The translations under genes were made by a program, and so were the position numbers. Positions 2,215 to 18,426 of a stretch of DNA of 64,000 nt are shown in pieces (positions within the stretch are counted from its first letter, which is position 1; the number at the start of each line of letters is the position of its first letter). Below the pieces are notes generated by a model. That model saw nothing but the letters and a program-made list of their open reading frames with translations. It was not told where the DNA came from and ran no database searches. This DNA comes from Shigella phage ChubbyThor, in sequence record OL615013. One strand, given 5' to 3'.

Positions 2215-5139
2215 TCAATTTGACATCTGTTTCCAGTCTGAGGAGGTTAAGCCATGTGATTTCCACCAGGAACTCGCACCTGCACTCCAGACTTCCTGTC
2301 CAATAAAACGGGGGGTTACTGTAGCCACAGGCGTAGGACCAGAGACGACAACATACCCATATTTTGCTGGGCCAGTAGCATTGTTCAGTATCGTGTCTTT
2401 GGTAATTCCAGTCGCACCATTAAACCATTCTAGGTCTGTTCCGCTCGCCCCACTAATAAACTCAGGTGAAAACTTAGTGAAACTACAGGCTGCATTTACA
2501 CGTGCGCCGTTGTATGCATTATATCCACTAGCCTGGGTATTAGTCCAACGGCCACCGATCACACTGCCGCCACTACAGCTCAGGAACCAAGCTGCGTATC
2601 TTGCGAACCCTTCCACGTTCACATTAATCAGTTCAAAACCGGAAGCACCATTACACTGAATACCATCGTTGTTTGGGACACCACTCGCGATTTGTGGGTT
2701 AGCAGCATATCCAGTTAAGTTAGCGCCATTAATGTAAATACCAGTACTTGTGTTAGTGCTGAAGAAGATACCGACACCAGAACAGTTCTGAACGCTGAGG
2801 TTGCTAATACGGATACCACGAGCATAATCGAAACTTAAAGCTCGCTCTGCCGCTGAAACAGACCGATAACCAAATCCAATATCACGCAGACGTATATTGC
2901 TCATAGTGATATTGGATGGGTTCATACCCGGTGTCACAACTTCAAAACCTTCAAAGGTGATTCCGTTACCACAGTTGGTGGCTACAACATTATCCACAAC
3001 AATGTCGGCAACGTAGCGTTTGAAACCCATAGCCCCTTGAGCGCAGTCGCGCAACACCAGGTTGGACATTGCGCAGTTACGAGTACCGCCTGCCACACTT
3101 GCAGATAAGTAGATCCCAAGGTCGCGCGTGTTTTCTACATAAAGACCATTCACCCAGCAGTTTTTGGTAGTCGCAAACATCAGACCTGAGTCGGGGGCAT
3201 TCACGAGCTTACAGTTGGTGATAGAGCATCGATTCCCACCGAACGTTAAGATGTCGGCTACAGCATACAATGTGTTGCTTGCTTGGTTTCCGTCTATATA
3301 CAAATCTATTAAATGGGTATCCTGTGCATCAAAGTTCTCGACAAGATAATATGCTTTGGTCGCATCATTACAAACATTATCTGCGAATTTCAACCAGCCG
3401 CCTGCACCCTTAACAATAGTTTTAGAACCAATATGCAGATGCGTGAACACCCAAGGGTCTCCATTTTTGTTTTTGGGTGTGATGCCAATTACGCAATGTC
3501 CGGAAACACTATCCGCATAATCCAATGCTGCCTGTAATGTTTCCTGATCTGTCATTGCGCCGAACATGAAAGCGCGAACATCAATATAGTCTTCAAATTG
3601 AATTTCAAGTTGATTACCGTCCAGGCGGTCAATTAATACCACACCGTCGGCAACTTTACCTGTGTTGGGAACAACTGAATATTTGTTGTAAATACCAGAA
3701 AGAGTTTTGCTGGCCACAATACGCCCGAGCACGGTCTGGTTCGAGTTTAGCGAGTTTCGGTCTCCTAATTCCACAGCAACGCCGCCAATAGACCCAACCC
3801 CCACATTAGACTCTAATAATTCTTGGAAAACGACCAAGCTTTCAGAAGTCGGCAAGAGCAAAGAAACAACAACATTCCCTGGTGCATATGTCAGAGTGCT
3901 CCCACTCACAGATACAACAGAAGAACCTGTCGGGATACCAGAAGGTAAGCTCCAAATCTTTTGCGCCACCACATCATAGATAACAGTCTTTCCGTCCAAT
4001 TTGGTGACAGTATCTGATGACAGAATAACCTGAGAATTTGGAACGTTCATAGAACGCGCCACTTCGTTTGGTGTACGGTCGATCTGGTTGTACAGGGTTG
4101 GGTCGCCATTAATGACGACAACAACTTCATCACCAGCTTCGAGTTCGTCGGCCAGCGTGATGATCTTCGTAACGGAGTCATAAGTGAAGCCCAGACCTTT
4201 TTGCTGGCGGGATCCATCGATAAAGATCTCAGAAACATCTTCGGCATCCACGTCCAACTCGATCTCGGTTTCACCACCCGCAGCTGATCCACTATTGTAG
4301 ATCCAAGTGATAACCGTGCCGCCGCCGGAACCACCGGAGCCATTGCCCAACTGGATCGGGACGTATTGGATGACCTGCAGCTCGGAACCTGATGGGATTG
4401 ATGGACTGAAGTCCACATTGTAACCGTTCAGGGAATACTTTGATTCCAGCAGGCGTTTGCCGTCAACATACACGTCAACGATAGAAGGTTGTGTAGTCAG
4501 CGTTACCTGAGCAGTGTCTGCCGAAACGGTTTCCGTGAAGATGGTACGACTGTAAACGCGCCCCTGACCAAGGCCGACACCAGCAGTAACAATCCAACCA
4601 CGCGCGTCTCCAGACCAGGTAAAGGTCGCAGATACGCTGTCGGTGGAGAGCGTCATAGGCTCTACAGAGCCGTACATTGGGCGACCATTTGGGTCAATGG
4701 TCAGGGGATACAGGGAGAACTTTCCATACAAGTCACAGACTGTAACAGAATCACCCACACGCGTAGGGGAAGGGAACACCACCGTAGAGACGCCTGTGGA
4801 GTTGTCTACCAGATAGCCTCGCCCTTCAGTGAGCGTTGCCGTAGAGGCATGCGGAAGGGCTTCCCAGCGGATACCACCGCCACCCAGCGGCAACCATCCA
4901 CCATTTTCGTAGAAGCCCTCAAATTCGTCGGAGTCGGCATTGTAGCGAACAGAAGACGGGAGACCTGCGTCAGCATTACCCTCAGGTAAAGTCAGGACAG
5001 CATCTGGTCCATGCTCAATCGTACCCGTGTTGAGGATACCAGCCAAAGTAGACTGCTCTTCAGCCACCAGACCGAGAGGGAAAACAGGCTGTGTTGGTTT
5101 ATTAGCCATTTCAAATACCCCTAAATGTGTTCGTTTCAT
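2215..5139 (-). CDS. tailspike / tail fibre protein with N-terminal anchor module, Gly-rich linker and beta-helix domain
   Basis: 974-aa ORF; GSGGSGGG linker; internal segment (TKLDGKTVIYDVVAQKIWSLPSGIP...) homologous to N-terminus of ORF 1..2133; likely true start is the second in-frame ATG at 5109 (SD AGGGG 8 nt upstream, late-promoter-like box at 5141-5153). Confidence 0.55.
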   Translation of the reverse strand: MKRTHLGVFEMANKPTQPVFPLGLVAEEQSTLAGILNTGTIEHGPDAVLTLPEGNADAGLPSSVRYNADSDEFEGFYENGGWLPLGGGGIRWEALPHASTATLTEGRGYLVDNSTGVSTVVFPSPTRVGDSVTVCDLYGKFSLYPLTIDPNGRPMYGSVEPMTLSTDSVSATFTWSGDARGWIVTAGVGLGQGRVYSRTIFTETVSADTAQVTLTTQPSIVDVYVDGKRLLESKYSLNGYNVDFSPSIPSGSELQVIQYVPIQLGNGSGGSGGGTVITWIYNSGSAAGGETEIELDVDAEDVSEIFIDGSRQQKGLGFTYDSVTKIITLADELEAGDEVVVVINGDPTLYNQIDRTPNEVARSMNVPNSQVILSSDTVTKLDGKTVIYDVVAQKIWSLPSGIPTGSSVVSVSGSTLTYAPGNVVVSLLLPTSESLVVFQELLESNVGVGSIGGVAVELGDRNSLNSNQTVLGRIVASKTLSGIYNKYSVVPNTGKVADGVVLIDRLDGNQLEIQFEDYIDVRAFMFGAMTDQETLQAALDYADSVSGHCVIGITPKNKNGDPWVFTHLHIGSKTIVKGAGGWLKFADNVCNDATKAYYLVENFDAQDTHLIDLYIDGNQASNTLYAVADILTFGGNRCSITNCKLVNAPDSGLMFATTKNCWVNGLYVENTRDLGIYLSASVAGGTRNCAMSNLVLRDCAQGAMGFKRYVADIVVDNVVATNCGNGITFEGFEVVTPGMNPSNITMSNIRLRDIGFGYRSVSAAERALSFDYARGIRISNLSVQNCSGVGIFFSTNTSTGIYINGANLTGYAANPQIASGVPNNDGIQCNGASGFELINVNVEGFARYAAWFLSCSGGSVIGGRWTNTQASGYNAYNGARVNAACSFTKFSPEFISGASGTDLEWFNGATGITKDTILNNATGPAKYGYVVVSGPTPVATVTPRFIGQEVWSAGASSWWKSHGLTSSDWKQMSN

Positions 5140-5153
5140 CTAGGGGTATTTAG
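5113..5153 (-). promoter_or_regulatory. late-promoter-like box CTAAATACCCC with SD-sequestering inverted repeat upstream of tailspike gene
   Basis: Minus-strand CTAAATACCCCTA = plus 5141-5153; 11-bp inverted repeat plus 5113-5123 / 5141-5151; 3' arm contains AGGGG SD for ATG 5109. Confidence 0.4.
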
Positions 5154-5161
5154 TTTTCACT

Positions 5162-6373
5162 TTAGAAAGAAGCGACTAGATTGTAGTCAACGGAGCAAGC
5201 AGTCGTCGTGTTCGCATTTGTTATCGTCAAACGAAGTTTTGAAGACACTACAGAACCCGAGAATGTCACCGTACCGGAAGTGGACTTCTGAATCAACAAC
5301 TCCGACTTGATAGTCCCGTCACGGGTGATCGTCACACGATACGTATCCACGACGTTGCCTGTACCCCATTGTGCACTGATCAACACCTGACAAAGGTTCA
5401 CCAAATCGAAGTCGGGCAACGCAGAGTTCCCCGAAGCAGAGACAGTGATGCCGCTTGGGTTGGTCTTCCCGATCTTCACACGGGCAGCAATGTCGGCGTC
5501 CAGGCTTGTCATTTTGGCGTTGTAGGTCGATGTGTTGACCTTTCCAGACAACGTGGTATTGATCGTGCCGATATCACTCTGAATGCCGCTGATGGAACTG
5601 TCCAACGCCGCCATCTTCGTGTTATACGTACTGACGTTCACTTTGTTGTTCGTCAGATCTAGTATACTGGTGTCCAGGCTAGACATCTTGGAGTTGTAAG
5701 TCGACGTGTTGACCTTCGCAGCCAGAGTGGTGTTGACAGTGTTGAACTGAGACTGGATATCCAACATGTCAGCATCGTAATCGACCACTTTCAGATACGC
5801 ATTGAAGCGCGTGTCATTGAAAATGGAAGTCACAAACGCAGATGTGTCGTACTTGACAGTGTCGGTTCCACTCACCAGTAACATGGTAGTTGGCACACCA
5901 GTACCAGAGTAAGTGACCAGATTTGTGCCGTCGAAAGTGAGTTTGTTGTAGCCGCCAGATAACAACTCGATTTTCAGACCAGAGTTAACCCCGGCAGTGT
6001 CTTCACTCACGCCGTGCTTGCGCAGCATAGACAGATTGACGCCATCAGTGGAATCAACTGGCTCATCTGCGATGGTAAGTTTCTTCCCCGTAGGGATACT
6101 GACACCAGCATTGGCTCGGATTTCTGCGGCAAAAGTCTTCCGCCCGTTGATAGTTTGTTCCCCACCGTCGGTGCGAATCACCTTATTATCCAACGTGTCG
6201 TAGATGTCATCCACAGAACGCTTCAGTTCATACGTCAGATGAGCTGAAGGAGGAAACAACGGATCATCAACAGCGAAATCGTTGATAACATCGTTCTTGC
6301 TTACTTTGTCGTCAACAGAACCAAGAATTGCGTCAATCTGCTGACCTGTATATTGACTCAGGAAATCGGCCAT
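5162..6373 (-). CDS. tail fibre protein with internal sequence repeats
   Basis: 403-aa ORF; three copies of motif VN(T/V)STYNxKMxxLD; Ser/Thr/Asn-rich; sits between baseplate genes and tailspikes. Confidence 0.5.
   Translation of the reverse strand: MADFLSQYTGQQIDAILGSVDDKVSKNDVINDFAVDDPLFPPSAHLTYELKRSVDDIYDTLDNKVIRTDGGEQTINGRKTFAAEIRANAGVSIPTGKKLTIADEPVDSTDGVNLSMLRKHGVSEDTAGVNSGLKIELLSGGYNKLTFDGTNLVTYSGTGVPTTMLLVSGTDTVKYDTSAFVTSIFNDTRFNAYLKVVDYDADMLDIQSQFNTVNTTLAAKVNTSTYNSKMSSLDTSILDLTNNKVNVSTYNTKMAALDSSISGIQSDIGTINTTLSGKVNTSTYNAKMTSLDADIAARVKIGKTNPSGITVSASGNSALPDFDLVNLCQVLISAQWGTGNVVDTYRVTITRDGTIKSELLIQKSTSGTVTFSGSVVSSKLRLTITNANTTTACSVDYNLVASF
5500..5760 (-). repeat. three imperfect direct repeats inside tail-fibre gene
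   Basis: Three related DNA segments starting near 5507, 5612 and 5685, encoding VN(T/V)STYNxKMxxLD. Confidence 0.5.
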
Positions 6374-10119: not shown

Positions 10120-12170
10120 TCAAAGAGGAGAGGACTTTTCAAATTAGCTGGTCTGCGGTAAAGTATTAAACACGAGGGAAACAGCGCATTGAGTTAGGCA
10201 TCTAAAGCCGACCTCACTAATCCCAGTCTCAGGGGCATGCGTGAATAGAGGCGTAATATCCACCTCGCTGGTGTCAGTGGACGCACTTGACCGTCGGAGA
10301 ACGAAACTCCCTGTTGTAGCGTGATTAGCTCAGAATCAGAGAGCACCCCGTTGGCAAGTCGACACCAACATATAAGGGGAGGTCGGGGGCGCTAATCTCC
10401 ATCACGCCGACAACATTATGAGTCTTCATAGAGGGTTCATAATGTTGCGTCAAAGGGCAACACAAAGGTTCCTGTTGGTTGAATTAACTTGATTCATAGT
10501 TCCTGCTGATCTTCCCGGATTCGAAGGAGCACCAACAGGCGAGGCCGGATGCGTAAGTTCCGGCAAATCGATGGCGAGGTGGTGCATTGGTGACACGGGG
10601 TAGCGCCCAGAAGTGTGGTTCGATTCCACACCCTCGCCAACAAATTAAAGGTTTTGTCAATAACGGGTTGCAGAGTATAGTTAACCCACTGAACGAAAAG
10701 CTGTTTGGGCACTAGACAAACACTTCGATGTGAACCCAGGACATGGCGTCTTGTGCTCAAACAGGTTTTCGTTCTCGTTGCTTGCGGCTTTGCGGGTTTT
10801 AAGAAACAGACCACAAAGATAAATGCAAATGATAACGCTTATCTGGCAGTAGCTTAACAGCTAAAACACCAGTGAGGTCTTCCGACTCCTCATAACAAAA
10901 TTCGGCGCACTAAAAATAGGCGGGAGGGTGTGATTAATAAGCTCCCGCCGACATCTGAGAGGGCACTTGATCGAGGTCGGTATCCGCTATACGGGATGCT
11001 GTAAAATGAATCCACGGAGTGTCCTCCCAGATGTGTCTCACAGCGCATCAGTTTGCAGTTATGCAAGCTTCAATAAGTTAAAACGCGCCTCAGGCGTTAT
11101 GGGATAAAGCCTTAAACAGTGGAATCCCCAGGGCTGGCAATCCCTGTTAAAGAAGTAGCCGTGTGGGGGTCAGCCCCCACAACGCAAAGTAGAGTCCTCT
11201 GGACGTTGAACTTTAACCCAAGGGTTGATTCACATGGTGAACGTTCCCGGCGGCGATAGTACAAGATGAGGGGTCATTGAAGTTCAGAGAACTCTACTTT
11301 GCGGCAGGTACTGCAAAACAGTGATCATCCTGACAAGCGTGATCACTCTTCGACAAAGCATCGCATCGTGGCTATCAACCACATCCTCGCTCTAGTGATG
11401 AGTGGTGTTATGTTCTGTCGGCCAGCCTCGTTTGGTCTGAACGTTAGAGGACAAGTGCTGAAGTGTGACGAAGACACTGAAGTGCGGGTTGTTTGGTGAA
11501 TCCTGCTAAGCGCAAGGGTTGAGTGGCAAAGAAACACCTGAGGGTAAGTCAACGCCATTATTCGCCATGATAATGGCATCGGGAGGCACCCGACGCTAAA
11601 CCGTTTGGCCTGGCGAAAGCAGGCAAGTATCTGGGGTCGATCACCTTGTCCTCTCCCAGGTGCGGGTTGTAGCATGGCTGCAACTCTGATGGCTCTGGGC
11701 ATCCGAATATCAGTTGTGGATGACTAGTGAAAAGAACGTTCAGAGCCATCAGAGTTGTGACCAACCCGATCTTGCAAGCCCGTATCCCGATCTGGTTAAG
11801 ACTTGCAAGTGGAAAGCCCTGGAAAAATAAACGCCTGTTGTGAGGCTACGGTGCAAGCCAATGACCAGCAGAAGCGCGTTGCCGTGAGGCGCACAAAGAG
11901 GCCTGCATGAACTGATCATGCACAAACGGGATAAAGGGTTGACAGTCCTTGGTTGGTTACACAACAGATTAAGGGGCGATAGTTTAAGGGATAGCTGTCC
12001 GGACAGCGAATCCTCATAGAGAACGGCTGGGAGGCCAAACCCAGCAGGTGAGGTGAAAATCCTCAAACCCCGCCAAACATTGTTGGACTGCCAGCAAGCT
12101 CCGGTCTACGGCAGGCGTGATGGGATCGCGGAATTCAAATACCGCCTTGGGAGCACCTAAATAAACCAGT
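10120..12170 (+). ncRNA. ORF-free, hairpin-dense region: candidate large structured non-coding RNA(s)
   Basis: No ORF with plausible composition or RBS on either strand over about 2 kb; many stable stems (e.g. GGCGGGAG/CTCCCGCC near 10920-10950, GTGGGGG/CCCCCAC near 11163-11183, 12-bp long-range pair GCAAAGTAGAGT/ACTCTACTTTGC); strand and boundaries undetermined. Confidence 0.3.
11680..11756. repeat. 17-bp perfect inverted repeat with 43-nt loop
   Basis: caactctgatggctctg (11680-11696) is the exact reverse complement of cagagccatcagagttg (11740-11756). Confidence 0.85.
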
Positions 12171-12193: not shown

Positions 12194-12394
12194 ATGATGA
12201 AAACGTTCGGTGATTTTATTGCTGAGTGGGATGGCCTCGCCACCGACAACAAAGAGATTGTCGAGTTTGTTGAAAAGCGAGGTGACAAGTGGGTTGTCCT
12301 TGACCACACCAAGACGAAGGTTCTTGGTACACATGACACCAAAGCTGACGCTGATGCCCAATTAAGGGCGATTGAAGCGAACAAGCACGGATAA
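12194..12394 (+). CDS. small hypothetical protein (66 aa)
   Basis: ORF track 12170..12394 begins at TTG; internal ATG at 12194 with GGTGAG SD is more plausible; stop lies 1-2 nt before tRNA-Asn. Confidence 0.35.
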   Translation: MMKTFGDFIAEWDGLATDNKEIVEFVEKRGDKWVVLDHTKTKVLGTHDTKADADAQLRAIEANKHG

Positions 12395-12395
12395 A

Positions 12396-12471
12396 GACGA
12401 TGTAGTTCAGTCGGTAGAACGGTGGACTGTTAATCCATATGTCACAGGTTCAAGTCCTGTCATCGTCGCCA
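12396..12471 (+). tRNA. tRNA-Asn (anticodon GTT)
   Basis: Hand-folded cloverleaf: acceptor GACGATG/CATCGTC, D-arm GTTC/GAAC, anticodon stem GTGGA/TCCAT with loop CTGTTAA, T-arm ACAGG-TTCAAGT-CCTGT, discriminator G, CCA encoded. Confidence 0.8.
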
Positions 12472-12727
12472 GACAATGGGTGTGAACGAAAGTGAATAGG
12501 CACGAAGTACGCGACCGACAAGCTCCAAGCCTCTGTCCAATAGCCGAACGGAATCTGAAGACGACGATAGTAACGCCCACCAAATTCAGAGTGTAGAGGC
12601 TACAGTAGTGCGCACCTCACGGGTTGCTACACCGGACACTCTGATACAAATCTGCCGCTGCGTGGATTAGCTGAGGAAGGATGGCCGATGTCCTCGAGTG
12701 TGGCCCAGCACGCAGCGGTAGACCAAA

Positions 12728-12811
12728 TGTGAGTGTGGCAGAGCGGTCGAATGCAGGAGACTGTAAATCTCCCCGTAACAGCGCGGTGGTTCGAATCCAT
12801 CCACTCACACC
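12728..12811 (+). tRNA. tRNA-Tyr (anticodon GTA), type II with long variable arm
   Basis: Acceptor GTGAGTG/CACTCAC, anticodon stem GGAGA/TCTCC loop CTGTAAA, T-arm GGTGG-TTCGAAT-CCATC, discriminator A, CCA encoded. Confidence 0.75.
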
Positions 12812-12952
12812 AAACACAGTAAGCGTTGCAGCCACGCTGTGTATCTGACCAGAAGGCACTGGTCGCCAGTTAACCAATCGGCGCTGAGAAGCGCGGGGAG
12901 TTGGGCTACGGCAGATCAAATGCTCAATCGGGTGTGAAGCCCGTTCAAATTT

Positions 12953-13036
12953 CGCGGGAGCCATAGGGGTTGGACAGTAGCCGACTGATCATCGGCGACG
13001 ATCACTGGACAGGTTCGAATCCTGATCTCCCGCTCC
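12953..13036 (+). tRNA. tRNA-like element, possibly tRNA-Ile (anticodon GAT) with irregular D/T arms
   Basis: Perfect 7-bp acceptor GCGGGAG/CTCCCGC + CCA; stem-loop GCCGA-CTGATCA-TCGGC fits an anticodon arm; TTCGAAT T-loop present but T-stem has a mismatch/extra nt; could not fold a canonical D-arm by hand. Confidence 0.4.
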
Positions 13037-13040
13037 AAAT

Positions 13041-13129
13041 TGGAAGGTTGCCCGAGAGGTTTAAGGGACTCGACTGCTAATCGAGTGGGGCTTTTAGCCC
13101 CCGAAGGTTCGAATCCTTCACCTTCCGCC
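13041..13129 (+). tRNA. tRNA-Ser (anticodon GCT), type II
   Basis: Acceptor GGAAGGT/ACCTTCC, 3-bp D-stem CCC/GGG, anticodon stem CTCGA/TCGAG loop CTGCTAA, variable-arm hairpin GGGGC/GCCCC, T-arm GAAGG-TTCGAAT-CCTTC, discriminator G, CCA encoded. Confidence 0.8.
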
Positions 13130-13540
13130 AAATTTGCGATCATCGCGGAAATCCCAGACGCGAGTGGAGGCCAGGGTGAAGACTGGCACATGGGCACTGA
13201 CGGCAAAGGTGTTCTACCTCCTGGAATTGGGTGGCCTGAATGGTAGGGAAAGCAGCCAAGCGTTGTGGGTTCAACTCCCACTCACCCAGCCCCAGATGGA
13301 ATGGGTCCATCATCGCAAATCATATTTTGGGCGTGACTTCCTGAAGAGTTAGAAGGTGTGCATGCCGACTCTCTCGTAATCGGGTGTTTAGGAAGTTAAG
13401 AAAATCGCGGCGAGGATAGTGAAATGCAAATAGCTTTCTCTACGCCGACGACTTCAGGTTCGATTCCTGACGCGCTCTCCCATAAGGCAGTACCAGTGCG
13501 AAGTGTGTAGTCTTTTCAACCCATCCCCATCGATGTGGTA

Positions 13541-13694: not shown

Positions 13695-14348
13695 ATGCGT
13701 AATGTTTCTATCTGGGAAAATACTGAAGAATGGGAATTGCAGTCCACCCCAACTATAATCCGTATGTTCCAATACAAAGGCAACAAGCGTACTCTGAACG
13801 AGTTCTTGTCGCCGAATTATATCCATCGCGGCTCCCAGCTCGCTCCGCGTGATCTCAACCAGCCTGGCGAATGCACACCCTTTGATCTCGGCGTGAAGGG
13901 GCAGGTTGTCCTTATGGGTTACTCTAGTATTACCGCCGCCGAAGAGGGCAACGGTCAACCGTTCAAAGTATTCCATACACGCGAACAGGCAATCCATTGG
14001 CTGGTCAAAAACTTCTTCTATTTCTATGGCGATGAAAGCGCAACCCGCCGTTGTCGTAAAGCCGTTTCTATGGACTTCGACGCAGAGAATCGGAAGTACC
14101 AGGCCATGGCTCGCGAGTATGAAAAGAATCTCGTCAAGCCTGTCACTGTGGTTGACAACAAATACGTCGCTGAAGCCCCGCGTCATACAGTGAATATCGT
14201 TCCGGCCTGTGAAACGAAAGCGCCGACACCGCCTACTCCTCCGGTCAGTCGTGTTCTGAATGATCAGGGCGCTCCGGTAAAACAAAAGGCCAAGAAATCG
14301 TCATTTGTGGATAACATGATGAAGTTCCTGCGGTTGTTCGGGAAATAA
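13695..14348 (+). CDS. hypothetical protein
   Basis: 217-aa ORF, ATG start with GAGGAT SD upstream. Confidence 0.5.
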   Translation: MRNVSIWENTEEWELQSTPTIIRMFQYKGNKRTLNEFLSPNYIHRGSQLAPRDLNQPGECTPFDLGVKGQVVLMGYSSITAAEEGNGQPFKVFHTREQAIHWLVKNFFYFYGDESATRRCRKAVSMDFDAENRKYQAMAREYEKNLVKPVTVVDNKYVAEAPRHTVNIVPACETKAPTPPTPPVSRVLNDQGAPVKQKAKKSSFVDNMMKFLRLFGK

Positions 14349-14405
14349 TAGAAGGGGGGGTGTCTCTCTGCAGTAAATAATAGACACCCCTTATGGAGAA
14401 TTACC

Positions 14406-14997: not shown

Positions 14998-16254
14998 ATG
15001 AACAAATTCGCTGCACAACCCCTCGCTCCATATATTCCGTTTCACACGTTAGGGAAAGGTCCATACAAAACGATTTTTGATGTCCTCTCTCTTCATCGTG
15101 AACATATTCACTGGGAAGACTACCTCTACAAACACACTCCGTGTGAACTCGTCCCCAACCCCGAAACTAACCAGCAGGTCTGGTTCAAGCGTGAAGATTA
15201 CTTCGCGCCGCTATCTTGTTATATGAATGGCAAGCAGGGCATCAACGGCAGCAAACTCCGTCAGGCCATCTGGCTCATGGTTGAGCACCTGAAGGCCGGA
15301 GGCTCCCCTGACATCATCCACGGCACTGTCGTTGGTAGTCCGCAGTCCCCTATGGCGACGGCAGTCTCTCGGCACTTCGGCGGCAAGACAACCACTGTAC
15401 TCGGCGCGACCAAACCCACCACTTGTATGAACCATGATATGGTGGAAATGAGTGCCTGGTTCGGTAGTGAGTTCAACTTCGTCGGCTCCGGCTACAACAG
15501 CACCATCCAACCTCGCTGTAAGAAGCTCATCGAGCAGGTGAATCCAAAGGCGTACTACCTGGAATATGGTATTACCCTGGACCACACAGTGCATTCCCCC
15601 GAGCGCATCGCAGGATTCCATATGCTGGGCGGCGAGCAGGTTGCTAACATCCCTGACCATATCACCGATCTGATCATCCCTGCTGGATCATGCAACTCAT
15701 GCACAAGCATCCTGACCGGGCTGGCGATGCACCCTAAGCCTAATCTGAAGCGTGTTTATCTGATTGGGATTGGACCAAACCGCCTGGACTTCATTGAGAG
15801 CCGCCTGCGCATCATCGGCAAACAGGCCAATCTGCCTCACATTGTCGACTTCACCCGTCGTTATCACGACAACCCAGACTATGTGCACGGCAAGAAGGAG
15901 CTTCAGCATGCCTCTAAGAGCGTTTCGCTGGCTGGCCTCCTAAGTGGTATCAGGCAGAAGGGAGAGCCAGAGGTCGTGCTTCCTCGCTTTGAGGTACACC
16001 ATTGGGATCTTCACACCACCAATTGGGTTCGTTACAATGACCTGATGGATTATCAGTGGGGTGATATCGAACTGCATCCTCGCTATGAAGGCAAGGTCAT
16101 GACCTGGATCCAGCAGAACAAGCCCGAGTTGCTCAATGAGAACACTCTGTTCTGGATCGTGGGAAGTAAACCATACATCGAGCCGATGAAGGCTGCATGC
16201 CCTGAGCTGGCTATCCCAGATGAAGTGAACGTCAACACCTTCACTCCTTCCTGA
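14998..16254 (+). CDS. PLP-dependent enzyme, fold type II (ACC deaminase / D-cysteine desulfhydrase / Trp-synthase-beta-like)
   Basis: 418-aa ORF; segment FKREDY...NGSKLRQAIWLM resembles the KREDx...GGNKxRKLE PLP-lysine region of the ACC-deaminase family. Confidence 0.5.
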   Translation: MNKFAAQPLAPYIPFHTLGKGPYKTIFDVLSLHREHIHWEDYLYKHTPCELVPNPETNQQVWFKREDYFAPLSCYMNGKQGINGSKLRQAIWLMVEHLKAGGSPDIIHGTVVGSPQSPMATAVSRHFGGKTTTVLGATKPTTCMNHDMVEMSAWFGSEFNFVGSGYNSTIQPRCKKLIEQVNPKAYYLEYGITLDHTVHSPERIAGFHMLGGEQVANIPDHITDLIIPAGSCNSCTSILTGLAMHPKPNLKRVYLIGIGPNRLDFIESRLRIIGKQANLPHIVDFTRRYHDNPDYVHGKKELQHASKSVSLAGLLSGIRQKGEPEVVLPRFEVHHWDLHTTNWVRYNDLMDYQWGDIELHPRYEGKVMTWIQQNKPELLNENTLFWIVGSKPYIEPMKAACPELAIPDEVNVNTFTPS

Positions 16255-16260
16255 TCCCTT

Positions 16261-16291
16261 CTAAATACCCCATACAACCCGTGTGGGGTAT
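16261..16291 (+). promoter_or_regulatory. late-promoter-like box CTAAATACCCC whose tail forms a hairpin with the SD of a 31-codon uORF
   Basis: CTAAATACCCC at 16261-16271; 8-bp stem ATACCCCA (16265-16272) / TGGGGTAT (16284-16291); small ORF ATG at 16294. Confidence 0.4.
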
Positions 16292-16360
16292 CTATGAAAC
16301 CTTTCTTGAATATTTCCGTGATATCGTCCTGTACAAACCCGGCCTGGCAGTGCGGGAAGC

Positions 16361-16371
16361 CTAAATACCCC
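16361..16371 (+). promoter_or_regulatory. late-promoter-like box CTAAATACCCC upstream of acidic-protein gene
   Basis: Exact second copy of CTAAATACCCCATA, 29 nt upstream of ATG 16400; GAGGA SD between. Confidence 0.45.
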
Positions 16372-16399
16372 ATATGGCTAACCCACTGAGGAACCCAAC

Positions 16400-16858
16400 A
16401 TGCCAACCTCCAAATTGTTTGAATCAGAATACACCAATGATATCCCCGTATGGACTGGTGTTCAAGACGGCATCACGATTGAGCTGTTTGATCGTGAAGA
16501 GACGGGCGCGGAAGAGATCTATGCAGGCGTTGAAGGCACTGATGTTGTTCGCGCCGCTGTAGCCCTTGCCACCTTCCTGGAAGATGCGCCGATTGATGGT
16601 GTGCCGTTCGAGGCGCACGTAGATCCCGAGGATCCAACGTCTATCATCATTACAGTGAATGGGGTGCCATACACTTCATACAGCATTGAGACGGACGAAG
16701 AGGGCAGCGGAGCGCTGTATATTGCTACTGACCTGCAGCTGGAAGACGATGAGATGGATTATCTGATTCAGAATGGGGTACTGCCGCCGTTCACAGATGA
16801 AGACCTGGACACGGAACTGGCCGCCGTCGGTGACGATGACGACTTCTGGGAAGAATAA
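16400..16858 (+). CDS. strongly acidic protein (about 40 Asp/Glu in 152 aa); candidate DNA-mimic / host-takeover protein
   Basis: ORF with GAGGA SD; composition by direct count; poly-Asp C-terminus GDDDDFWEE. Confidence 0.55.
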   Translation: MPTSKLFESEYTNDIPVWTGVQDGITIELFDREETGAEEIYAGVEGTDVVRAAVALATFLEDAPIDGVPFEAHVDPEDPTSIIITVNGVPYTSYSIETDEEGSGALYIATDLQLEDDEMDYLIQNGVLPPFTDEDLDTELAAVGDDDDFWEE

Positions 16859-16861
16859 GAA

Positions 16862-16890
16862 AAGGGGCGTTAAGCCCCTTTCTTTATTTC
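16862..16890 (+). terminator. bidirectional intrinsic terminator between convergent genes
   Basis: Hairpin AAGGGGC-GTTAA-GCCCCTT followed by TTTCTTTATTTC, A-rich on 5' side. Confidence 0.55.
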
Positions 16891-16896
16891 TTCACA

Positions 16897-17423
16897 TTAA
16901 AGGCGGGAATCCAGCCAGGCGTTCTTTTCGTTCTGCCATTCCCAAGCGGCCTGACCGCCTGCCATGATCACTTCCAGGGAAGGAGTATTGTCATCCTCGC
17001 CACCGTGAAGGTCAGGGTCGAAGCCGTCGTCTTCAGGATCGTCTTCACATTCATTCTGGTAAGCGGAATATTCGATATAATGGGCTTCGGCTTCGCAATC
17101 CATGTCACCCAGAGCTTCCTCGAGGGTCATTTTACCTTCGGCAATCAGTTCGGCAGTGGCATCGTCCAGACCTGCGTCTTTCGCTTCAACGAACAGTTCG
17201 TGACGTTTCTGGAAGAGGAAGAAGTTCATGGCATCAACGTAGGAGTCAAATTTCTGTTTCAACTCTTGGCGGACGCCTTTCATGATAAGATGATACACCA
17301 CCATGTAACGACCAGCAGAAAGTTTGTCGCCGTCTGCCGCGCCGAAGAAGTTACCGAAGACGTGACCTTCACCTGCGTCAGACAGAACTGTGTTTTTGTT
17401 TGCGGTTTCTGCTAAAATTTTCA
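16897..17423 (-). CDS. hypothetical acidic protein
   Basis: ORF track 16897..17604; internal ATG at 17423 has strong SD GAAGGA 7 nt upstream, giving 175 aa; acidic C-terminal half. Confidence 0.45.
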
Positions 17424-17519
17424 TGATGTATTTCCTTCTCTTCAGATTGTTGTTTGTTCGTACTACAATTAGAAGTATACGCCAGTTATTGAAGAAGTAA
17501 ACTTTATTCAATAAATATT

Positions 17520-18365: not shown

Positions 18366-18426
18366 TGAATGGCTCTATGGTTAAATATGCCCACGTGCTA
18401 ACGGCACGGATAACCTGGAGAATTAC

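Follow-up and report, generated by a model that had tools for sequence, protein, structure and literature searches.

What does an extremely acidic protein do for a phage whose whole family retains it, and where does it act? We addressed this question for the 152-amino-acid (aa) product of the gene at positions 16400–16858 of a 64,000-nt stretch of DNA from Shigella phage ChubbyThor (sequence record OL615013; hereafter the window), which a sequence-only reading had proposed to be a DNA mimic of the Ocr/ArdA/Arn type. Combining genome comparison, structure prediction and published virion proteomes, we find that the protein is very probably made late in infection and associated with the virion. 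The reading we favor, to which we assign a probability of about 0.35 for the full chain of steps, is that of a head passenger that is packaged, ejected together with the DNA and acts as an acidic decoy. Earlier records already list the family as an uncharacterized virion protein of the Ackermannviridae; our analysis adds a link to a T4-style passenger cassette, identifies conserved terminal motifs and excludes the known mimic families.

Megablast searches with the region and the surrounding 24 kb assign the window to the genus Agtrevirus (Ackermannviridae), with 97–98% identity to Shigella phage Ag3 and 94–97% to SKML-39, P46FS4, Gloob, MK-13 and EspM4VN, all of them Agtrevirus. Phages of this genus are distant relatives of T4, and Ag3 encodes homologues of the late-transcription proteins gp55, gp33 and gp45 (PMC3121705). 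The acidic protein matches one PHROGs family only, phrog_3852 (E 3.5e-82, residues 1–152 of 152), for which no function is annotated. Its orthologues include Ag3 gp189 (orf00227), ViI Vi01_184, MK-13 gp086 (100% identity), LIMEstone1 ORF174 (98%) and Sajous1 gp115 (75%), and 28 homologues were found at 47–98% identity. By tblastn, the gene is present in 277 phage records, 276 of which cover at least 80% of the protein; nearly all are named for enterobacteria that serve Ackermannviridae as hosts (Salmonella, Klebsiella, Escherichia, Dickeya, Serratia, Shigella, Erwinia, Enterobacter and Yersinia). When 1.84 billion representative proteins were searched with the profile, eight matched: seven short members of the family and, weakly, a 559-aa repeat protein. 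Pfam-A contains no matching family at E ≤ 1, NCBIfam none, and searches of PDB sequences with the single protein and with the profile gave nothing below E 0.39. Matches to the type III secretion chaperones ExsC and AvrPphF ORF1 were far too weak to build on.

The composition is as extreme as had been claimed from the letters alone (about 40 Asp/Glu against about 4 Lys/Arg and a poly-Asp C-terminus). Computed from the translation, 20 Asp and 20 Glu face one Lys and two Arg, the net charge is −37, the isoelectric point lies at the calculator floor of 4.05, and in the C-terminus (...AAVGDDDDFWEE) four consecutive Asp precede Phe-Trp-Glu-Glu. Of all ATG-initiated open reading frames (ORFs) in the window that reach 80 aa or more, the protein ranks first for acidity, with a net acidic fraction of 0.243 compared to 0.137 for the runner-up. 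Over 32 distinct family members the net charge ranges from −25 to −40 (mean −35.6), and it lies between −33 and −40 in every member but that of ViI (−25); since all 32 are strongly negative, the acidity is not a matter of chance. The ViI orthologue (ViI 5338–5793; protein P0027) contains an internal stretch, IMHRYRARMCPRCRSPCNVLRRR, unlike that of any other member, which resembles a pair of compensating frameshifts and probably reflects sequencing errors in the 2010 record. Comparison with five relatives gave 10–33 synonymous and 0–10.5 non-synonymous differences, corresponding to a ratio of non-synonymous to synonymous rates (dN/dS) of 0–0.09. These comparisons establish a real gene that is subject to strong purifying selection and whose extreme negative charge has been preserved.

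The genomic setting is conserved too. The order pyridoxal phosphate (PLP)-dependent enzyme, ADP-ribosyltransferase (ART; present or absent), acidic gene, convergent minus-strand block and DNA polymerase is common to Ag3, MK-13, Gloob, CAU_YEP3, LIMEstone1, ViI, Sajous1 and the metagenome locus L010, in which the position beside the DNA polymerase gene survives at 45% identity of the acidic protein. Within the Aglimvirinae the acidic protein is conserved as well as the polymerase (98% to LIMEstone1); at greater distance it diverges faster, with 45% identity as against 60–68% for DNA polymerase and neighbors.

Association with the virion was reported for two phages. In the LIMEstone1 virion proteome, ORF174 is listed as an unknown structural protein of 16.62 kDa, identified by one peptide at 12.5% coverage (PMC3296691), and the genome record marks it as a 'confirmed structural protein'. 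This coverage corresponds to 19 of 152 aa, the length of the tryptic peptide EETGAEEIYAGVEGTDVVR. A single peptide is to be expected, because digestion of the acidic protein with trypsin gives only two peptides of workable size, the remainder being a 101-residue piece. For Sajous1, gp115, whose orthology we checked by translation, yielded 31 spectra from virions purified on caesium chloride (CsCl), a count near that of the neck protein and above that of the baseplate tail-tube protein (PMC10892097). In the ViI record, Vi01_184 and its neighbor Vi01_183 are named 'phage associated protein', whereas 181–182 and 185c–189c are 'putative uncharacterised'; all unknown structural proteins of LIMEstone1 are said to have structural counterparts in ViI (PMC3296691). 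Spectral counts were rejected as a measure of copy number because per residue they are similar for the portal (12 copies) and the sheath (more than 100) in the Sajous1 data. The papers on phiD3 and PP35 hold nothing on the acidic protein, and we found no usable transcriptomes, fractionation, ejection data or cryo-electron microscopy of internal proteins in the literature on Ackermannviridae.

The virion association falls short of certainty because the same data sets contain obvious non-structural proteins. This would accommodate a late, abundant protein that stays outside the virion, such as an acidic chaperone that assists the assembly of tail spikes, hub or head, and that co-purifies with the particles. 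We regard such co-purification as improbable: the protein was found in both LIMEstone1 and Sajous1 by different preparations, including CsCl banding, the ViI label points the same way, one peptide is close to the maximum that trypsin can yield, and the number of Sajous1 spectra is comparable to or higher than that of genuine neck and baseplate parts. The sequence-only reading had named an acidic scaffold or chaperone component of the virion with no defense phenotype as the outcome that would tell against a DNA mimic; presence in virions, one half of this, is what the LIMEstone1 and Sajous1 detections and the ViI label indicate, and a phenotype is unreported either way.

The timing of expression can be read from the promoter region. 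The motif CTAAATACCCCATA is found twice by exact match, at 16261 and 16361. The second copy overlaps the former ART stop codon (TAA 16362–16364) and is the one that faces the acidic gene. A CTAAATA box stands about 30 nt before the start codon in all homologous loci examined, including the metagenome homologues L009 and L010 (37–46% identity); CTAAATAcCcc is a published regulatory motif of ViI-like phages (PMC7283392), and the LIMEstone1 record annotates a putative late promoter at the position of the acidic gene. Boxes of this type also stand ahead of three other genes of the window: the 974-aa tail-spike gene, the gp6 baseplate wedge gene and a 65-aa ORF at 12197. A sigma-70 scan revealed no convincing early promoter 5′ of the acidic gene. 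As the box stands upstream in every locus examined, we infer that late expression is a conserved property of the gene; and since the box is the late motif of ViI-like phages, the protein would not be an early factor of the Ocr type. At the 3′ side, the hairpin of the strong terminator has folding energies of −18.2 and −21.6 kcal/mol on the two strands (z −5.5 and −5.0), and terminators are annotated here in the records of Ag3 (two opposed ones) and LIMEstone1. Of the late-promoter boxes and bidirectional terminator that had been noticed in the letters, the second box and the terminator belong to the acidic gene, and the first box does not.

This first box belongs, by alignment, to a gene that the window phage has lost. 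In Gloob, LIMEstone1 and CAU_YEP3 it precedes an intact gene for an ART-PolyVal protein, and LIMEstone1 carries an annotated putative late promoter there. Alignment with Gloob, Ag3 and LIMEstone1 reveals the remnant of this gene, originally of about 152 aa, downstream of the first box; Ag3 carries the same deletion, and the gene table of MK-13 has the same gap. The first box can be newly recognized as the relic of a deleted ADP-ribosyltransferase gene. Intact copies, which occur in Gloob, CAU_YEP3, LIMEstone1, ViI and Sajous1 and in 229 records in all, match Pfam PF18760 (ART-PolyVal, E 8e-12) and contain HGS and GxGFYLT motifs. One record names the gene 'N-acetyltransferase', which looks wrong. 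The ART product was itself detected in virions (Sajous1 gp116, 10 spectra; LIMEstone1 ORF173), and polyvalent-protein domains are predicted to be delivered along with DNA (PMC5512222). Its N-terminus reads MKTFLQYLQE before Ser or MKTFLEYLKE before Ala and closely resembles the capsid-targeting leaders of the T4 internal proteins (IPs) as read from the T4 genome, MKTYQEFIAE before Ala in IPII and IPIII and MKTFKEF in IPI.

The pairing of the two genes could mean that the acidic protein serves the ART-PolyVal protein as inhibitor, immunity protein or packaging adaptor, silencing the transferase inside the head or in the cell that produces the phage. Small acidic proteins that inhibit toxins are common, most relatives carry the two genes in tandem, each behind its own promoter box, and virions contain both products. 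This partnership is weakened by three observations: (i) phages that have lost ART, namely the window phage, Ag3 and MK-13, keep the acidic gene intact and under purifying selection, (ii) it occurs in 277 records as against 229 for ART, and (iii) in the distant locus L010 no ART separates the acidic gene from the gene upstream of it. We therefore consider it scarcely probable. The loss of the upstream ART is also the sole difference between the window locus and the ORF174-type loci of other Ackermannviridae, direct orthologues with the same position, promoter box and terminator, and this loss is shared with Ag3 and MK-13.

To assess the fold, we used an AlphaFold2 model (m82d244f96230, built from 29 sequences) with a mean predicted local distance difference test (pLDDT) score of 77.5 and a predicted template modelling (pTM) score of 0.73. 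The model consists of a leader (residues 1–15), a compact core (16–125) and a disordered tail (132–152). The core contains 29 Asp/Glu and three Lys/Arg, its acidic residues being located mostly in loops. The tail ends in a near-invariant D-[F/L]-W motif, with D148, F149 and W150 invariant but for a replacement of Phe by Leu that is confined to the most distant homologues. The predicted beta-rich fold has no convincing match among solved structures, DNA mimics and phage structural proteins included. We considered the terminal DDDDFWEE as a motif like the tail of single-stranded DNA-binding protein (SSB) or as a sliding-clamp-binding motif and rejected both; such motifs need an aromatic residue at the extreme C-terminus or a Leu/Phe-rich pattern, and here 0–5 residues follow Phe-Trp.

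These data bear directly on the proposal that the protein is a DNA mimic of the Ocr/ArdA/Arn type, one that is produced from its own promoter during infection and blocks restriction or another DNA-targeting defense. The likeness in composition is genuine: T7 Ocr is small and extremely acidic (117 aa, 29% Asp plus Glu, net charge −28, compared to 152 aa, 26% and −37), and the gene has its own promoter and terminator. The kinship did not hold. Aligned with hhalign, the family profile reaches a probability of 0.1% against T7 Ocr (seven aligned columns) and 0.11% against T4 Arn; for ArdA there is no Pfam family at E ≤ 1, no PDB sequence match and no entry among the fold matches. The missing fold match does not by itself exclude a mimic, because DNA mimics have no fold in common. 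Whereas Ocr is a rod made entirely of helices, the acidic protein is predicted to be beta-rich, with its acids mostly in loops and in the disordered tail; a rigid fold that presents carboxylates in the manner of bent B-DNA, as the helical Ocr dimer does, is not predicted. Further differences from Ocr are the predicted late rather than immediate-early timing and the presence in virions. A late-type promoter conserved in all homologues would act too late for incoming DNA, a gene conserved across the family under purifying selection is not a variable accessory, and phage phiHS2 of the same family is sensitive to bacteriophage exclusion (BREX), a comparison at family level. Taken together, expression as an intracellular mimic is very improbable. 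The broader suggestion of an independently regulated counter-defense or host-takeover factor fares better. Such a role is reasonable because the usual neighbor is a host-modifying enzyme carried in the virion. The gene has its own promoter and terminator, but a late promoter is badly timed for a factor that has to act ahead of restriction, unless the protein is pre-packaged.

Pre-packaging is suggested by the N-terminus. M-x-x-S-[KTNS]-L-F is present at the N-terminus of 30 of the 32 distinct members, the exceptions being P0023 (one residue fewer before Ser) and P0028 (LFLKE, with L-K-E before Ala). In the alignments, L6 and F7 of the leader are invariant and E8 is nearly so, followed by Ser or Ala; M-x-x-S-[KT]-L-F-E-[SA] is among the best-conserved motifs of the protein and is kept at 37–50% overall identity. 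The first ten residues appear unstructured in the model, with no secondary structure before residue 16 and a pLDDT of 68. In T4, proteins reach the prohead core by means of their leaders, and gp21 cuts after L/I-x-E (PMC9026906). L-F-E followed by Ser or Ala fits such a site, so that cleavage by a T4-type prohead protease can be predicted. The leader also resembles T4 Alt (MELITELFDE), the scaffold N-terminus of Sajous1 (..NLFE before Gly) and the site in its major capsid protein (..NLGE before Ser). The Sajous1 scaffold (3646–4485) starts MKPELQNLFE before Gly and has a poly-acidic C-terminal stretch, DDVDDDKDDDDKDE, and the major capsid protein (4577–5899) has one early L-x-E site, NLGE before Ser, at residue 51; both predicted sites are consistent with a cleavage rule of the T4 gp21 type in Ackermannviridae.

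Additional candidates for head proteins carry leaders of the T4 kind. The 65-aa ORF of the window (12197–12394, plus strand, CTAAATA box at 12157; phrog_3684, unannotated) starts MKTFGDFIAE, identical to the MKTYQEFIAE of T4 IPII/IPIII in 8 of 10 positions, and is a candidate internal head protein; tRNA-Asn begins 2 nt past its stop codon. Two virion proteins of LIMEstone1, ORF080 (13789–14358, minus strand, MKPFIQYFNE) and ORF082 (15520–16011, minus strand, MSKPSFLQFMQE), likewise have T4-like leaders. Because ART, the 65-aa ORF, ORF080 and ORF082 bear such leaders, the heads of Ackermannviridae appear to be loaded with a set of passengers tagged in the T4 style, of which we found no description in the literature consulted on these phages. 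The acidic protein would belong to this set in part. ART, the 65-aa ORF and the two LIMEstone1 proteins match the canonical capsid-targeting leader well.

Comparison with T4 defines how far the analogy reaches. With IPI*, IPII, IPIII and Alt the acidic protein shares a late promoter, virion association, a short unstructured leader with L-x-E before Ser or Ala, and a gene outside the head module; as with Alt, an ADP-ribosyltransferase of the ejected type is involved, here as the usual neighbor. T4 IPI* blocks a restriction enzyme of the GmrSD type. No similarity in sequence or fold connects the acidic protein to the T4 IPs, and it lacks their canonical MKT[FY]..E leader. The T4 IPs are basic or near neutral (IPI has an isoelectric point of 8.9) and highly variable, whereas the acidic protein is extremely acidic and found throughout the family; the high diversity of T4 internal proteins is documented (PMC3012670). 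T4 IPs are ejected from the head; cleavage, head location and ejection of the acidic protein are predictions. A second T4 protein, gp67 of the prohead core, from which an acidic internal peptide derives, is closer in charge: it has 80 aa with 35 Asp/Glu and a poly-acidic C-terminal tail and resides in the head interior. It is encoded in the head cluster, forms a helical core or scaffold and is not homologous, in contrast to the acidic protein with its globular beta-rich core and its gene outside that cluster. By analogy, gp67 shows that very acidic proteins can sit inside heads of the T4 type.

We favor the passenger because of the ART neighbor, the protease-type site in the leader, the position outside the head and tail modules like that of the T4 ip and alt genes, and the gp67 precedent. 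In the proposed sequence of events, the acidic protein would be made late by the phage transcription machinery of the gp55/gp33 type and loaded into the particle, most likely as a head passenger, as for the upstream ART-PolyVal protein with its T4-type capsid-targeting leader. The N-terminal leader would be removed by a prohead protease similar to T4 gp21, between Glu and Ser of S-K-L-F-E-S. The protein would then leave the head together with the DNA and act in the new host before phage gene expression, where the acidic core and the flexible tail with its D-F-W tip may bind and occupy a host protein that is basic and binds nucleic acids, for instance a nuclease, a defense sensor or a nucleoid protein. 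The decoy would thus be pre-packaged, not expressed in the infected cell.

A number of observations weigh against this model. The protein has no canonical capsid-targeting leader: it agrees with MKT[FY]x[EQ][FY]xxE at no more than 4 of 10 positions (M1, T3, F7 and E10), and T3 is not conserved across the family. We found no peptide-level data showing cleavage of the leader. Nothing assigns the protein to the head over the tail, and the upstream genes include tail parts ('tail needle knob'). Carry-over is possible because the virion proteomes include RegB (31 spectra in Sajous1) and ligase and gp44 (LIMEstone1), all non-structural. A net charge of −37 is unfavorable beside packed DNA; neither sequence nor fold links the protein to any known DNA mimic; and the sensitivity of the Taipeivirus phiHS2 (Ackermannviridae) to type I BREX, again compared at family level, argues weakly against an anti-BREX activity like that of Ocr. 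Finally, universal presence and a very low dN/dS suit a structural or assembly role better than a factor in an arms race.

Such a role is nearly as likely as that of the passenger decoy. Here, the protein would be a component of the particle, structural or accessory, in the tail, baseplate, tail-spike hub, neck or capsid surface; its acidic tail and D-F-W tip would dock on a basic patch of another virion protein, and it would have no function after ejection. Detection in LIMEstone1 and Sajous1 virions and the ViI label suit this possibility as well, as do the proximity to tail and baseplate genes, the type of promoter box, which also precedes tail-spike and baseplate genes, and the non-canonical leader. 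It is made less attractive by the lack of fold similarity to solved phage structural proteins, the faster evolution compared to the neighbors at distance, the pairing with an enzyme gene of the injected type and a charge that would be unusual in a lattice component.

A more specific and unlikely version of the passenger model takes the chemistry of the genome into account. The acidic protein would be a pre-loaded, DNA-mimic-like decoy that is ejected together with a hypermodified genome (5-NeOmdU, partly cationic) and neutralizes a DNA-binding defense or nucleoid protein of the host in the first seconds; in a variant, it would pair specifically with the aminated DNA in the head. We know of no description of virion delivery for proteins of the Ocr, ArdA or Arn type.

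The features of the locus are collected in Table 1.

Table 1. Features of the acidic-gene locus, with positions in the window
Feature	Positions	Strand	Description
First CTAAATACCCCATA box	16261..16274	+	Putative late-promoter box that served the deleted ADP-ribosyltransferase gene; does not belong to the acidic gene
ART-PolyVal gene remnant	16294..16364	+	First ~5 and last ~18 codons; ~390 bp deleted, junction 16310/16311, frame broken
Second CTAAATACCCCATA box	16361..16374	+	Putative T4-type late promoter (−10 element) of the acidic gene; 31 nt before ATG
Ribosome-binding site GAGGA	16388..16392	+	7 nt before ATG; read from sequence
Acidic protein coding sequence (phrog_3852)	16400..16858	+	ATG start, TAA stop, 152 aa; dN/dS 0–0.09
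N-terminal leader, residues 1–10 (MPTSKLFESE)	16400..16429	+	Alignments, N-terminus list, model
Folded core, residues 16–125	16445..16774	+	Three strands, helix, four strands, helix (AlphaFold2)
Disordered acidic tail, residues 132–152 (TDEDLDTELAAVGDDDDFWEE)	16793..16855	+	pLDDT <50; 11 of 21 residues Asp/Glu
Two-way intrinsic terminator	16860..16882	both	Hairpin and T-runs on both strands; shared with the convergent gene 16897–17424 (−)

Several neighboring genes deserve mention in their own right. Between the tail/baseplate block and the region of the acidic gene lies a tRNA cluster (12396–13130, plus strand) with Asn-GTT, Tyr-GTA and Ser-GCT. The gene at 14998–16254 (plus strand) encodes the PLP-dependent enzyme, with a weak match to Pfam PALP, membership in phrog_3650 and 92–94% identity across genera; its product may be the PLP-dependent decarboxylase in the 5-NeOmdU pathway of thymidine hypermodification that has been described for ViI-like phages. 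The convergent neighbor at 16897–17424 (minus strand; 174 aa, 38 Asp/Glu, net charge −24; phrog_4823, no annotation) is very acidic too. It is absent from the virion reports, and its long-range conservation exceeds that of the acidic protein (92% versus 75% identity to Sajous1). A late-type box, TTAAATAT, is located at 18381–18388 (plus strand), 38 nt 5′ of the gene for DNA polymerase, a replication gene, and the LIMEstone1 record likewise annotates a late promoter ahead of DNA polymerase. The polymerase gene is continuous in the window (999 aa), whereas the LIMEstone1 copy is interrupted by two introns.

Ackermannviridae such as ViI, CBA120, LIMEstone and Ag3 are widely used in biocontrol and therapy, where their targets are Salmonella, E. 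coli O157, Shigella, Klebsiella and Dickeya, and for over half of their genes no function has been assigned. If the acidic protein proves to be merely a structural part, the finding is an ordinary one. If the pre-loaded decoy is correct, it would represent an acidic mimic delivered by the virion and endowed with a new fold, which would be considerably more interesting. If these phages do carry T4-style passengers, they would deliver ready-made effectors, an ADP-ribosyltransferase, the 65-aa protein and the acidic protein, together with their DNA; this would bear on host range and on resistance to bacterial defenses, and would offer a handle for loading foreign proteins into their capsids.

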